DNA from: Syntrophorhabdaceae bacterium
GTDB taxonomy: Bacteria > Desulfobacterota > Syntrophorhabdia > Syntrophorhabdales > Syntrophorhabdaceae
Direction of reading: 5' to 3'
NCBI GenBank assembly: GCA_963666485.2
Contig: CAXXUO010000004.1
Location: 128,001-192,000, forward strand
DNA length: 64,000 bases
The number at the start of each line of letters is the position of its first letter. The stretch's first letter is position 1. Positions 30,001 through 36,000 of the stretch are shown piece after piece. A program made the position numbers.

Positions 30001-33000
30001 TACGGGCCGCAGGATAAACAGAAGGGATTTCTTGAGGATCGCGTCACTTGCCGGGGGTGCTGTTGCCCTTGCCGGGATACCGGATGTATTTGCACTGTCA
30101 GCCAAGAGGATGACTGTTGCGACAGCCGGCATCGGGAGCGTTCAATTTACAATTGGCGGGGCAATAGCGCGCACTATTGCGCAATATACCGGGCTCGAGG
30201 CCATCGCCGAGATAACGTCGGGGCGGGCCGATAATTGCGAACTCGTAGGATCGAAAAGGTCAGACCTCGGGCTCATCGCCGCCGATATGGCCTATGACGC
30301 CTTTCGCGGTACGGGAATGTTCGAGGGAAAACCGGTCCCGATCCGCGTGCTCACGGCCCTTTATCCCAGCTACACGCACATCGTGACCTTAAAGAACAGC
30401 AAAATAGCTTCTGTAAAAGACCTGGCGGGCAGGCGGGTAGCCATCGGCATCAAGTCAGGTGCAACTCACACCGTGGCGCTTCGGCTCATAGAGGCTGCGG
30501 GAATCGGCAGTGATAACGATGTAAAGAAAGTAACCATGTCATCGTCCGAATCGCCCCGCGCGCTGCGGGACGGCAAGATCGACGCCTATGTCTGGACCGG
30601 AGGGATTCCTTCCGCATCTATAGCTGACCTTGCACAAACCCCGGGCCTTGGCATGTCGCTCGTGGGCCACGGGAACCTCGTGCCTGCCGTCAATGCCACG
30701 TACGGGCCCGTTTATTACCGGTCACTCATTCCCCAGACAACGTACCCCGGCATGAAAGAGGATGTTTCCGTATGCGCATTCCAGAATATCATTATCTGCC
30801 ATAAAGATATGGAAAACCGCACGGCATATAACATACTCAAGATCATGTTCGAGCACCTCGGCGAGATATCCGCCGCCCACGCACAGGCGAAGCAGATGGG
30901 CCTCGAAACAGGCGCTTCCCTGACCTCAGTCCCCTACCATCCGGGCGCGCAGAAGTTTTTTGCGGAGAGAGGGTACAACGTTCCAATGTAAAAACGGTTC
31001 CACGTTCCAGGTTAAAAGCTTTTCTTATTTAGCGGGGTTTTAGCGTGGAACGTGGAACGTGGAACAAAAAAGCCGGCCAATTTCTTGGCCGGCTTTTTTA
31101 TCTGTTCCTTTTTTTTACGCTTTTTCCATCGCTATGATGGCGGCGCCGAGCGAACCGACTATCTGCGGTTCGACGTGAATCTTGAGCTGCGTTCCGAGTG
31201 CTGCTTCGAGGGCTTTTACGACACCGATGTTCTTGGCGACGCCGCCCGCCATGATGACGTCATTCTGGATCCCGCCAAGCCTGTTGATGAGGCCCATCGT
31301 CCTGTCGGCGATCGCTTTGTGAATACCATACAGGATATCCTCAAGCTCCTCGCCTTCGCTGACGAGAGAAATGACCTCTGATTCGGCGAAAACAGTACAT
31401 ATGCTGCTGATCGTTACTTCTTTTTTGTGTTTCAGAGAAATATCACCGATCCTGTCAAGTTCTACGTTCAACGCTTTTGCCATGACCTCGATGAACCTTC
31501 CGGTCCCCGCGGCACACTTGTCGTTCATTTCAAACTCAACAACGCGGCCTTTTTCGTCGATCCTTATGACCTTCGTGTCCTGGCCGCCGATATCAATGAT
31601 CGTCCTCGCCTGCGGGAAAAGATGATTGACGCCCCGTGCTATGCAGGTAATTTCGGTAACTGCCTGTTTCGCGAAGGACGCGCGTTTTCTCCCGCAACCG
31701 GTCGCTACAATATAGGAAACATCTGAAGGACTTTTGCCCGGATAGGCAAGCACTTTCTCAAGTGCCATTTCCGCCGTTTTCTTCGAATCCGCGCCTGTTT
31801 GAAGTATCGTATAACCCAATATTCCAGAGTCCTTATCGAGAAGCAGAGCTTCAGTTGTAATCGAACCTATATCTATCCCGGCAACTAACATAAGCTTCTC
31901 CCCCTTTTTAACTATTCGAGTGTGGCAATAACTGCATCCGCTTCGACTTCCTGGCCAGCTTCGACGTTGATCGACTTGATCGTGCCGGCTGCAGGCGATA
32001 CGATCGGCATTTCCATCTTCATTGCTTCGAGGATTGCAACCTGATCGTCTTCCGCTACCTTGTCGCCAACTTTAACGTCAACTTTAATGATCTTTCCAAC
32101 CATGGGGCATGTAATTTCTGTAGCCATATTTCCTCCTTACGAGATTGACTGTTAAATTTTTATTTCCTGTACCCGAGTGCGAACTGGGCGATGATCATCT
32201 TCTGTACGTTTGATGTTCCTTCCACGATCTGATAGGACTTCGCATCCCTGAGGTATCTCTCGACAGGATATTCTGAAGAGAAACCGTAGGAGCCGAAGAT
32301 CTTCACTGCTTCACCGGCGCAGAAGTTTGCTGATTCGCCGGCATAGTATTTAGCCATCGAGGTCTCGAGGGTGTTGTTCATTCCCTGGTCTTTCTGCCAT
32401 GCTGCCCTGAGGACGAGAAGCTTCGCGGCTTCGTGCTCAACTGACATGCGGCCGATCTGCTCCTGGACCATCTGGAACTGGCCGATCGCCTGACCGAACT
32501 GCTCTCTTTCATTTGCATAGCGGCATGCTTCTTCGATACAGCTTTCTGCAACGCCGACTGCCCTGGCTGCTGAGCTCAAGCGGGTGAAGTTGAGCATCGT
32601 CATACAAATGTTGAAGCCCTGGCCGAGCTTGCCGACGAGTGCGCTTTTCGGGATCTTCGCTTCTTCGAAGAAGATCTCGCCGGTGGGTGCGCAGTGGAGG
32701 CCGAGTTTCGTGGTGATGGCTCTCTGGACAACGCCCGGGGTGTTGAAATCGATGAAGAAGGCCGACATGCCTTTGTGCTTCGCTGCCTTGTCGGTCATTG
32801 CATAGACTACGCCGCAGCCGCAATACGGTACGCCGGAGATCCATGTCTTTGAACCGTTGAGGATATAACCGTCATCGACTTCGACTGCGGTGGTCTTCAT
32901 GCTTGCAACGTCGGAACCGGAGTTCGGCTCGGTGATTGCAAAGCAGCCGCCGCTTGTGCCTGCGATCAGGCCGGGAAGGAACTGCTCTTTGAGTTCTTCG

Positions 33001-36000
33001 CTGGCATACTTAAGGAGAACATTCTGGGGACCGTTCATCTGAAGGTTGAAGGGAAGACCCCATGACGGGCTGACCCGTGCGAGCTCGGTTGCCATGAGAG
33101 TTGCTGCCATGTTGCCTTCTTCGAGTCCCAGGCCGCCGAATTTTTCCGGGGCCAAGCAAGCGAACATGCCCTGATCGCCCATTTTCTTGAGAAGTTCCGG
33201 ACGATATTTGTGCTCTTTCTCGTCTTCTTCCATCGTCGGTTTAATATTCTTTACTGCAAAGTCATAGGCCATCTTACGCATTGATTCGAGTTCGTCGGAA
33301 ATCTTAAATTCCATATTTTGCTCTCCTTTCTTTTCGGTATTTTTATGGCAATATTGTGAAACAATTAGCAAACCTATCTTAGCAAAAGCGCTTTTCGCCT
33401 GTCAAGCTAATTCTGATAAATATTTTAAGCGTTTACCAATGATTTAAGGTGGTTAACCGATTGCCGGTACACCCTTAGTTCCCGCCCCGAATTTTGTCTG
33501 GATAACGGGCAGGAATCATTGCATAAGTGCTTATTATTTTATATAATTAATCCGTCTGCATGGCAAGAAGAAAAGAATGATCATCAATAGAACTGGACTC
33601 GTAGACCGGGAATTGTACGTCGCCGGCATGGCGTGGTCGCCAACATACCTTGTGAATGCTGTCACACCCTTGCTTTTCGAGGCAGGGTTCTACCCTATCG
33701 CTCCGGTCTATCTCAGAGACATCCGGAAGGTCATCGGCGAACGTCAGCCTTCCTATCTCTTTCTGACCCATGTCCATTACGATCATTGCGGGGCGGCAGC
33801 ATATTTCCGGCAACACTTTCCCGGCATGAAGATCTGCACCTCGAAAAGGGCGGCAGAGATACTGAAAAGGCCTAACGCGATAGAGCTCATGACGGAATTG
33901 AGCCGTAATTTCGCCCACATCGCCGAAGATCTCCCGGGGATAAACAGGGATGACATCCTCACCGCCGATTTCGAACCCTTCACCCCGGACATCGTCTTCG
34001 ACAGCGATCAGCTTTTCGAGGCCGGCCCCTCCCTTACCGTTCAGGTGCTCGTCACCCCGGGGCATACCCGGGACATGCTGAGCTTTTACGTCCCGGAGCG
34101 CAAGATACTCATTGCCACGGAATCCGCGGGATGCCGCAGTCACACGGGGGAGATCGTCACGGAATTCCTTGTAAATTTCGATGAATATGTCGAATCGTTG
34201 AAAAAACTGTCCCGTCTTGACTGCGACATCGTCTGCCAGGGACATCATTTTATATATACAGGGACCGACGTTCAGAGGTTTTTCGATGACTCCCTGAAGG
34301 CCGCCCTCGACTTCCGTTCCCATGTCAACGAGCTTCTGGATGCGGAGGGTGGTGACGTGGAAAAGGTGGTAACGAGGGTAAAACAAGAGGAATACGACCC
34401 GAATCCCGGGCCGAAACAGCCCGAAACTGCATACCTCCTCAACCTCAGGACCCGTGTCAGTCACCTTGCCGGGCTTTCCCGGAAAGGTTAAGCGTTACCT
34501 TCATCGTCTGCGTTCTGACAGCGGTCCCGCCTTGAGGCATGATACCCCGCAATAATATTGGCTTTAGGGACGAAAACTGTTGACACGTTATGCATAATAA
34601 TAGTTAGATATATGACCATGTGAATTTTTTAATTTTTCAAAAACCAAATCTAATTAGGAGGGGCTGTATGGATATAAAAACGATCGGAGTTTTGGGCGCT
34701 GGCGTCATGGGTAACGGCATTGCTCAGGTAGCCTCAATGGCCGGGTACAATGTCATCTTAAGAGATATCGAAGACAGGTTCGTCGAAGGCGGAATAAAAA
34801 ATATCGATAAGTTCCTCGCAAAGACAGTCGAAAAAGGCAAAATGTCGGCTGACGACAAAAACGCCATCATGGGCAGGATCAAAGGCACCACCGATATGGG
34901 CGCCATGAAGGATGCGGACTTCGTCGTCGAGGTTGTTGTCGAAGTCATGGATATCAAGAAGAAAGTCTTCAAGGAACTCGATGAGATCACGAAACCCGAT
35001 GTCATCCTTTCCTCAAATACATCATCAATGTCACTGACCGAAATGGCGACCGCAACAAAGAAGCCGGACAAGGTCGTCGGCATGCACTTCTTCAACCCGG
35101 TCCCCCTCATGAGGCTCGTTGAGGTTATCCGTGCGGTCCAGACAAGCGATGCAACAGTGGCGGCAACCCTCGCCCTCACCGAGAAGTTCGGCAAAGTTCC
35201 CGTCGAAGTCAAAGTCGACATCCCCGGCTTCCTCGTCAACAGGCTGATGGTTCCCCACTTCATCGAAGCTATCAAACTTTACGAGCAGGGCATCGCATCC
35301 AAGGAAGATATCGACAAGGCAGCGAAACTCGGCCTCAACTACCCGATGGGCCCGTTCGAACTGATGGACCTCACCGGCCTCGACATCAACCTTCACGTAC
35401 AGCAGTATTTCTATGACAACCTGCCGAAAGAGCTCAAATGGGATCCCCCGCTGGCGCTCAAGAACCTCGTGAAATCAGGCAACCTCGGCCGCAAGAGCGG
35501 AAAAGGCTGGTACGATTTTTCTAAATAAGACACGGGAAAGGAGGGCTCCTCATGGCCTATGAAACTATCATAGTCGAAAAGGAAGCACCGATCGGGATCA
35601 TCAAGCTGAACAGGCCTCCCGTGAACCCGTTGAGTGTCCAGTCCTACTATGACCTCTACGACGCGATCGTAGATCTCGAAAAAGACGATTCAATCGGCGC
35701 AATCATCATCACGGGCAACGGCGACAAGGCCTTTGGCGCCGGCCTCGATGTCAAGGATGTCATGGGAAAATCCGGGGTCGAGACGCTCGATTTCCTCTGG
35801 AAAGCACCCAGGAAAACGTTTGATAAATTAACCTCTATCGCAAAGCCGACCATAGCGGCCGTTTTCGGCCTGGCACTCGGCGGCGGATGCGAAGTGGCGA
35901 TCTGCTGCGATCTTCGCATAGCATCCGAAGACGCAGTCTTTGGTGTGCCGGAGATCAACCTCGGCATTATGCCGGGTTCCGGTGCGACACAGCGCCTGCC

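Follow-up and report, generated by a model that had tools for sequence, protein, structure and literature searches.

A stand-alone biotin carrier gene beside an acyl-CoA dehydrogenase gene

The window, as we call the whole 64,000-nucleotide stretch of DNA analysed, carries on its minus strand an operon in which the gene for a 71-aa stand-alone biotin carrier (31912..32127) lies between those for a 384-aa acyl-CoA dehydrogenase resembling the non-decarboxylating type of glutaryl-CoA dehydrogenase (32160..33314) and, as third gene, a BcrAD/BadFG-type ATPase (acyl-CoA dehydratase activase, 31115..31891), a homologue of which was present at 18 of 21 carrier loci. The carrier is a bare biotinyl domain (Biotin_lipoyl) with the motif EAMKM and was re-found as the single biotin carrier of the native genome, as the survey's finding had stated. 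Sequence comparison showed the N-terminal anchor, the Ala/Pro linker and the 7-residue AccB thumb all to be missing, and the score against the AccB family TIGR00531 was 39.5, below the cut-off of 115.2.

The same finding had placed the carrier next to a glutaryl-CoA dehydrogenase. The adjacency and the best family match (NF045552) hold, but the score of the dehydrogenase lies under the family cut-off (418.5 versus 470 bits); the best structure was 3MPI. Val364-Glu365 is invariant in 15 of 15 sequences, as is Gly86, which stands in place of Arg87. We take the Val preceding the catalytic Glu to be a role-bearing position of the Desulfococcus-type non-decarboxylating glutaryl-CoA dehydrogenase, and Arg87 to be its carboxylate-binding residue; the enzyme encoded here shares Val-Glu with that type but lacks the Arg.

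Upstream of the operon lies a sigma-70-like promoter match (33376..33405, minus strand, 10/12 positions); it is a consensus match only, since one such match was found and 2.2 were expected by chance. Directly 3' of the activase gene lies a terminator-like hairpin (31076..31093, minus strand), matched on both strands and with a count not above chance. A divergent beta-oxidation cluster on the plus strand (33577..38057) encodes a metallo-hydrolase, a 3-hydroxyacyl-CoA dehydrogenase, an enoyl-CoA hydratase, a thiolase and a zinc-ribbon protein, and elsewhere in the family beta-oxidation genes frequently adjoin the dehydrogenase-carrier operon.

AccA and AccD without a native biotin carboxylase

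The source genome (G000, order Syntrophorhabdales) is 99.14% complete and 3.75% contaminated. Both AccA (C5:7607-8569; TIGR00513, 422.7 versus a cut-off of 319.3) and AccD (C9:170450-171313; TIGR00515, 382.1 versus 317.45) passed their family cut-offs and keep the Gly-Gly motifs and the four zinc cysteines; between this genome and one congener, accA gave a dN of 0.115 and a dS of 1.69. The genes adjoin dnaE and folC, which are their neighbours in E. coli too. Also native are plsX, fabD, fabG, acpP, fabF, fabH, fabZ, fabI, lpxA, lpxB, birA and bioABDF, bearing out the reported combination of AccA, AccD and FAS II with no native biotin carboxylase.

PF00289 and PF02785 each had one match above cut-off, both in the frame C3:8168-11959, which additionally bears PYC_OADA. 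When E. coli AccC was compared by phmmer --max with all 43,197 six-frame ORFs of the genome, no native carboxylase was found; the matches were the C3:8168-11959 frame, two CarB frames and a pair of weak matches to ATP-grasp proteins (E 0.038 and 0.28). As the survey had noted, the only Biotin_carb_N match thus sits in the first 54 kb of C3, which is foreign to the genome. The GC content of C3:1-54,000 is 63-70% and falls to 51% at 54 kb, the segment holds five of the ten most deviant tetranucleotide windows (n=372), and it has second copies of selB, folC, ilvB-like, ilvC-like and birA genes. Among the matches listed, which were public contigs, those identical to the native side begin at C3:54,096 and no piece bridges the junction. 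Foreign composition, duplicates and this unbridged junction rule out the C3 pyruvate carboxylase as a native gene.

An assembly gap was likewise ruled out as the reason for the absence: no congener (0/19) has the gene, nor do two well-assembled named genomes, the S. aromaticivorans UI genome and a single-chromosome assembly, both of which have AccA-, AccD- and GcdA-sized carboxyltransferases. As divergent carboxylases, C9:253490 and C9:252292 were ruled out as ATP-grasp proteins of other families, and C6:67719 (SucC-like) and C3:346708 (PurD-like), labelled by reading, were rejected. We regard it as very improbable that an unrecognised ATP-dependent loader, be it a CarB paralogue or a carboxylase that is non-homologous or has diverged strongly, charges the biotin: absence tests detect known families only, and two CarB-like frames and the two C9 ATP-grasp proteins are at hand, but the sole matches of the latter are to 'carbamoyl phosphate synthase-like' families and lie far under cut-off, phmmer --max yields nothing further, and we know of no enzyme of this kind.

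Carboxyltransferases and a Na+ pump subunit elsewhere in the genome

Three further components that had been reported from elsewhere in the genome were all located. GcdA (C1:208719-210437) matched 1PIX and 3GF3 over its full length (E about 1e-219). The biotin-less OadA/PycB subunit (C2:555185-556561; 1RQB, E 1e-119) keeps its catalytic motifs, falls short of the 5S family (PRK12330, 501 versus 827) and is closer to PycB/OadA. The membrane beta subunit (C8:95545-96687; TIGR01109, 418.7 versus 190.6) is preceded by a 43-aa OadG-related small subunit (NF040909, 58.5 versus 25). Matches to PF01039 were confined to GcdA, AccD and AccA; a 12S-type subunit was not found in this genome, the best match to an MmdA-type query being 23%. 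At the loci examined, accA and accD were never clustered with carrier, GcdA, OadA or beta genes, so that gene context gives no link between AccA/AccD and the carrier. A benzoate-CoA ligase family member and had and oah genes are present.

Distribution across the order and beyond

The reported absence of PF00289 from congeners was reproduced in a recount. In the rest of the order, where some members had been said to keep a carboxylase, 33 of 95 genomes have one and 62 lack it, while AccA is present in 93 of 96 order genomes and 17 of 19 congeners. Common inheritance of AccC with AccA/AccD in the order found no support from carboxylase loci or tree: of 45 carboxylase matches, 41 have a pyruvate carboxyltransferase no more than 3.5 kb away, two lie at contig edges and two are accB-accC pairs, and 32 sequences split into separate clades in a quick tree that omits loci L041 and L051 and matches without a locus.

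Within the order, AccA occurs without a carboxylase in 60 genomes; an OadA-like subunit was found in 54 of them, beta in 53, the carrier in 53 and GcdA in 51. Outside the order, 23 such genomes from six other families had beta as their most constant companion (22), with OadA in 19 and GcdA in 2. GcdA was also absent from family f3 (0/3), which does have beta. Missing from f3 and from 21 of the 23 outside genomes, GcdA was rejected as a universal donor. In genera g5 and g6, stand-alone OadA is missing in 7 of 7 genomes and a long PycB occurs in six, five of them with a carboxylase, a pattern consistent with OadA being an acceptor. This pattern represents one or two events among kin.

A proposed pool of carboxybiotin

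From gene presence and absence, domain structure and conservation, all directly observed, we propose, with about even confidence, that a single pool of free carboxybiotin, borne by the 71-aa carrier and loaded mainly by GcdA, feeds the pump, AccA/AccD and OadA and replaces AccC and pyruvate carboxylase. Aromatic degradation would proceed via glutaryl-CoA to glutaconyl-CoA, the carboxyl of which GcdA would transfer to the carrier. Most of the carboxybiotin would be decarboxylated at the membrane beta subunit with pumping of Na+, and a small share would pass to AccA/AccD to turn acetyl-CoA into malonyl-CoA. Some would probably also reach the OadA-like subunit and turn pyruvate into oxaloacetate; this subunit may be a second acceptor, not a donor. 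In GcdA-less lineages, an MmdA-type carboxyltransferase would probably take the place of GcdA.

The bare biotinyl domain and a pump anchor subunit of only 43 aa suggest that the carrier is probably untethered. We infer that state, together with its biotinylation, its use by AccA/AccD and the direction of every flux. The AccB thumb is needed by E. coli acetyl-CoA carboxylase, and its absence from the carrier counts against use of the carrier by AccA/AccD. Further observations count against the model: the dehydrogenase-carrier operon as a whole went undetected in G017, G018, G072 and G090 (94-97% complete), and many genomes of families f10 and f12 have two small carriers, so the sharing of one carrier does not hold universally. 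The carboxylases of 33 of the 95 other order genomes and the missing Arg87 of the dehydrogenase also weigh against it.

The survey's suggestion that carboxybiotin from decarboxylation feeds AccA/AccD is retained in part: the best reading is still that biotin is loaded with no biotin carboxylase involved, and within the genus the likely net donor is GcdA, which however cannot be the donor in general. The ATP-free transcarboxylation that the survey envisaged would still carry a cost, since each diverted carboxyl forgoes Na+ pumping.

One rival, not raised by the survey and to be taken seriously although we judge it unlikely, is that beta runs in reverse, Na+ influx placing CO2 on the carrier for AccA/AccD and OadA, as a membrane-potential-driven acetyl-CoA carboxylase. 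The breadth of beta (22/23 outside and 53/60 order genomes, including GcdA-less f3) would fit this, and Dimroth and Hilpert reportedly reversed such Na+ pumps in vitro; Gcd is also listed for the 'benzoate oxidizer/synthesizer' S. aciditrophicus in the accessible part of PMC7145394. Catabolism alone accounts for the presence of beta, however, the forward direction is expected on aromatic substrates, and beta was not found in 7 of the 60 order genomes, including G048 and G080, both 98% complete.

It is similarly doubtful that oxaloacetate is the donor, made by PPDK and GTP-PEPCK, with the OadA-like subunit loading the carrier and AccA/AccD taking the carboxyl in a 5S + 1.3S + AccAD transcarboxylase; ATP would be spent upstream, so this route is not ATP-free. 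The genome has PEPCK-GTP and PPDK, the OadA-like subunit occurs with catalytic motifs kept in 19/19 congeners, 54/60 order and 19/23 outside genomes, its gene directly follows PEPCK (G001, G003, G092) or PEPCK-PPDK (G076), and the P. freudenreichii enzyme catalyses the same net reaction (PMC8085960, accessible part). PEPCK beside a pyruvate carboxyltransferase equally fits gluconeogenesis, however. Oxaloacetate should itself be in demand, because PEP carboxylase, ATP-PEPCK and citrate lyase have no match and pyruvate carboxylase no native match in this genome. OadA is also missing where PycAB occurs (g5/g6) and was not found in 6/60 order and 4/23 outside genomes.

Malonyl-CoA from malonate activation or lipid uptake, with AccA/AccD acting as a decarboxylase or in some other job, is quite improbable. 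Other routes do exist, since AccA above cut-off is lacking from 57 of the 80 genomes of the phylum that are carboxylase-negative, and six acyl-CoA ligases here are of unassigned specificity. The malonate and fatty-acid-uptake alternatives named by the survey nevertheless gained no support: the genome has no match to MdcA/MadA (PF16957), AtoDA, CitG or CitX, and malonyl-CoA synthetase was not among the top five families for any of 10 ligases scanned (of 11 motif matches). Lipid A genes, which require acyl-ACP from FAS II, are present.

More broadly, and with somewhat less than even confidence, we suggest that in several syntrophic and anaerobic Desulfobacterota families a single untethered carboxybiotin shuttle replaces all ATP-dependent biotin carboxylases and couples catabolic decarboxylation, the Na+ gradient and malonyl-CoA and oxaloacetate synthesis, and that the pump subunit can act as an ion-driven biotin carboxylase. 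This would be a novel mode of operating acetyl-CoA carboxylase. To our knowledge, AccA/AccD have been treated as inseparable from AccB/AccC. If the shared pool exists, they would run on borrowed carboxybiotin, and fatty-acid synthesis would take its first committed step without ATP hydrolysis in organisms near the thermodynamic limit. With 2 Na+ per decarboxylation and 4 Na+ per ATP (PMC8473912, accessible part), about half an ATP would be saved per malonyl-CoA. The pool would also supply a step missing from metabolic models of syntrophs that degrade aromatics and, as natural plug-and-play among biotin enzymes, offer parts for ATP-saving malonyl-CoA supply.

Comparison with known systems

AccA and AccD are 48% and 50% identical to those of the E. 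coli heteromeric acetyl-CoA carboxylase and share its motifs and gene neighbours, but that enzyme has AccC and an AccB of about 156 aa with a thumb loop, and the native genome here has neither. In the literature searched, largely without subscription papers (including primary Syntrophorhabdus/Syntrophus work) and without supplements, malonyl-CoA synthesis by transcarboxylation has precedents, but no description of AccA/AccD without a biotin carboxylase, and hence no AccAD-based version, was found.

For Geobacter bemidjiensis, cooperation of GcdA and OadA was proposed from gene order (PMC2996986); in the accessible part of that account, OadA bears a pair of biotin domains, pump subunits were not found and AccA/AccD do not come up, whereas here OadA is biotin-less and a pump subunit is present. 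The Clostridium thermocellum model iCth446 assigns malonyl-CoA to a putative transcarboxylase (Clo1313_1523-1526) in this anaerobe, which has no standard acetyl-CoA carboxylase (PMC5414155, accessible part). There the assignment comes from modelling and concerns a single gene cluster; the present genome retains E. coli-type AccA/AccD, and its components are dispersed.

The GcdABCD system of Acidaminococcus fermentans and Clostridium symbiosum shares the GcdA carboxyltransferase and membrane beta subunit. According to the accessible part of PMC7145394, C. symbiosum GcdC comprises an N-terminal anchor, an AP linker and a biotinyl domain, and GcdD a membrane helix, an AP region and a region at the C-terminus; the carrier here is a biotinyl domain only and the anchor subunit is 43 aa. 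The four genes here are spread over three contigs, and two more carboxyltransferases come without a dedicated carrier.

Propionibacterium transcarboxylase (12S, 5S, 1.3S; EC 2.1.3.1) likewise combines a biotin-less pyruvate carboxyltransferase, a separate carrier and acyl-CoA carboxyltransferases, with no native carboxylase. Transcarboxylation is near equilibrium and able to yield malonyl-CoA, which this enzyme can produce in vitro (PMC8085960, accessible part). It differs in having 12S; G000 has no 12S-type subunit and no operon, with AccA/AccD as the proposed acceptor and a pump subunit present.

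AccA and AccD without a native biotin carboxylase

The Syntrophorhabdaceae genome gave one above-cut-off match each for the biotin carboxylase profiles PF00289 and PF02785, both in the same pyruvate carboxylase frame (C3:8168-11959; C1-C10 are its contigs). The first 54 kb of C3 proved foreign in GC, tetranucleotides and duplicated housekeeping genes. In a comparison with public contigs only (four runs from at most three samples), pieces identical to the native side started at C3:54,096, one run (X9) gave deep coverage of the foreign part yet left most of the native part uncovered, and no piece among the matches listed spanned the junction. 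C3:1-54,000 (L027:1-10096) comes from a high-GC organism, which makes C3 chimeric at its start; it accounts for part of the genome's 3.75% contamination. PF00289 was found in 0/19 congeners and 33/95 other order genomes, and AccA in 93/96 order genomes. Neither S. aromaticivorans UI (L130) nor a single-chromosome genome (L150) had a PF00289 match; both contained AccA-, AccD- and GcdA-sized carboxyltransferases. With its sole match in the foreign segment and none among congeners, the survey's finding that this genome keeps AccA and AccD without a native biotin carboxylase held, and the condition is real and lineage-wide. Where order genomes do have a carboxylase, 41 of 45 matches adjoin a pyruvate carboxyltransferase, some in genus g24 as accB-accC-pycB, and a quick tree placed them in several clades.

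Judged by sequence, AccAD looks functional and needed. Each subunit exceeds its TIGRFAM cut-off, the zinc cysteines and Gly-Gly motifs are kept in the alignments (17 AccA and 6 AccD rows, E. coli included), and accA showed dN 0.115 and dS 1.69 against one congener, most remaining pairs being saturated. The genes for FAS II and lipid A belong to the native genome, as do birA and bioABDF. In this genome neither accA nor accD adjoins the carrier, gcdA, oadA or the membrane Na+-pump subunit gene (beta), which counts against a link between AccAD and the carrier. In one accA product (L206, genome G057) the Gly that borders the conserved SGG motif (position 204 in E. coli numbering) is changed to Met. 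In two families an acyl-CoA dehydrogenase family gene sits in the plsX-fabD-fabG-acpP-fabF cluster, between plsX and fabD here (C1, L235:8166-9329) and after plsX in G210 (L204:2107-3270); its product could act on acyl-ACP.

The dehydrogenase-carrier-activase unit

The window holds a minus-strand three-gene unit (33314-31115) encoding a 384-aa acyl-CoA dehydrogenase, a 71-aa biotin carrier (biotinyl domain, EAMKM) and a BcrAD/BadFG-type activase (31115-31891). The dehydrogenase is 80-93% identical to those of 14 relatives, scores below the glutaryl-CoA dehydrogenase family cut-off and, among proteins of known structure, is closest to Desulfococcus glutaryl-CoA dehydrogenase 3MPI, whose Arg87, which we take to be the carboxylate-binding residue, is replaced by Gly. 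Dehydrogenase and carrier adjoin in 21/21 order loci, counting the window and 20 that were fetched. The pair adjoins had and oah of benzoyl-CoA breakdown in families f10, f12 and f46; the locus itself is therefore an ordinary acd-gcdC type unit, and the finding depends on the remainder of the genome. The entire acd-carrier operon was not found in four of five genomes searched again, and a contig end cuts the fifth. The activase stays next to the carrier in 18/21 loci with no dehydratase adjoining; a separate cluster (C1:104412-108649) has two activases and two subunits. A had gene with frame breaks is divided between C10:2-217 and C1:20-912, so these contig ends probably adjoin in the genome. 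In family f3 (L063-L065; genomes of 1.5-2.1 Mb) the unit is 82-83% identical, and no GcdA was found; a 519-aa MmdA-type protein is present and may decarboxylate glutaconyl-CoA in its stead.

Companion genes in order and phylum

Sixty order genomes have AccA but lack a carboxylase (this genome entered as negative). Of these, 54 had the OadA-like protein (a biotin-less pyruvate carboxyltransferase), 53 beta, 51 GcdA and, among the matches listed (all but two), 53 the carrier; relatives are not independent. In the phylum sample, 86/301 genomes lacked PF02785, 80 of them outside the order. AccA exceeded its cut-off in 23 of these 80 (f10 9/9, f12 6/6, f46 5/5 and three others), with carboxylase scored by PF02785 and carboxyltransferase by AccA alone. 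These 23 had beta in 22, PYC_OADA in 19 and a small carrier in 21, often in two copies; GcdA above 70% identity occurred in two, with weaker acyl-CoA carboxyltransferase matches in 18 more. Gene content therefore points to a general architecture with an acyl-CoA donor that differs between groups. The f46 genomes carry an MmdA-type gene just upstream of beta. The other 57 of the 80 also lacked AccA above cut-off (families f20, f45, f53, f58).

Candidate donors of carboxybiotin

A carboxybiotin mechanism for AccAD is plausible from the gene complement. In the available text of the sources, glutaconyl-CoA and oxaloacetate decarboxylation yield about -30 kJ/mol each (PMC7145394; PMC8473912), and transcarboxylation runs near equilibrium and is able to yield malonyl-CoA (PMC8085960). 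We give GcdA about an even chance of being the net donor of carboxyl to the carrier in this genus, since catabolic flux would far exceed anabolic demand. gcdA is followed immediately, in the same orientation, by bioF and bioA (C1, L021:5666-10438).

Oxaloacetate is a doubtful carboxyl donor. The OadA-like gene follows PEPCK in 4/15 order loci fetched around it, an order that fits either flux direction, and the genome has PEPCK-GTP, PPDK and malic enzyme and no PEP carboxylase match. In genera g5 and g6 stand-alone OadA is absent in 7/7 genomes and a long PycB present in six, a weak hint that stand-alone OadA may do pyruvate carboxylase's job. Loading of the carrier by reversal of the Na+ pump is equally doubtful; two order genomes of 98% completeness gave no beta match. 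Both routes are compatible with GcdA as donor. Malonyl-CoA from other routes is improbable: the genome gave no matches for the malonate decarboxylase alpha family, AtoDA or CitG/CitX, and malonyl-CoA synthetase was absent from the top five families of 10 scanned AMP-ligases (10/11 motif matches). A hidden carboxylase is more improbable still, as PF02786 added just two CarB frames and weak ATP-grasp matches, and phmmer --max with two carboxylase queries agreed with the profiles in finding no further carboxylase. Two CarB-like genes are full-length (C1:1098704-1101970, C2:490675-493923).

Comparison with known biotin systems

The 71-aa carrier is the only native biotinyl protein and has no N-terminal extension. 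E. coli AccB has a 7-residue thumb that is missing here, as are the anchor and linker of C. symbiosum GcdC, which the available text of PMC7145394 describes as a 30-aa anchor and a 39-48-aa AP linker followed by a 70-71-aa biotinyl region. The same text gives C. symbiosum GcdD a C-terminal region. The subunit preceding beta here is 43 aa (C8:96706-96837, NF040909 above cut-off); G005 and G148 have counterparts of 42-43 aa. Stand-alone carriers of 72 aa have precedent (1Z6H), and ours is probably untethered; we infer that GcdA, the OadA-like protein, AccAD and one pump subunit would all use this same domain.

Our search, mainly of open literature and main texts, found no published account of AccA/AccD retained without AccB/AccC. 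The portions available of earlier work place the ACC carboxylase in nearly all bacterial groups, with Thermotogales devoid of any ACC part (PMC3199775), propose GcdA-OadA cooperation in G. bemidjiensis (PMC2996986), discuss Na+-pumping OAD solely as a decarboxylase (PMC8100219), and assign malonyl-CoA formation to transcarboxylation in a C. thermocellum model (PMC5414155). AccAD without a carboxylase is a new form of this already known biotin chemistry.
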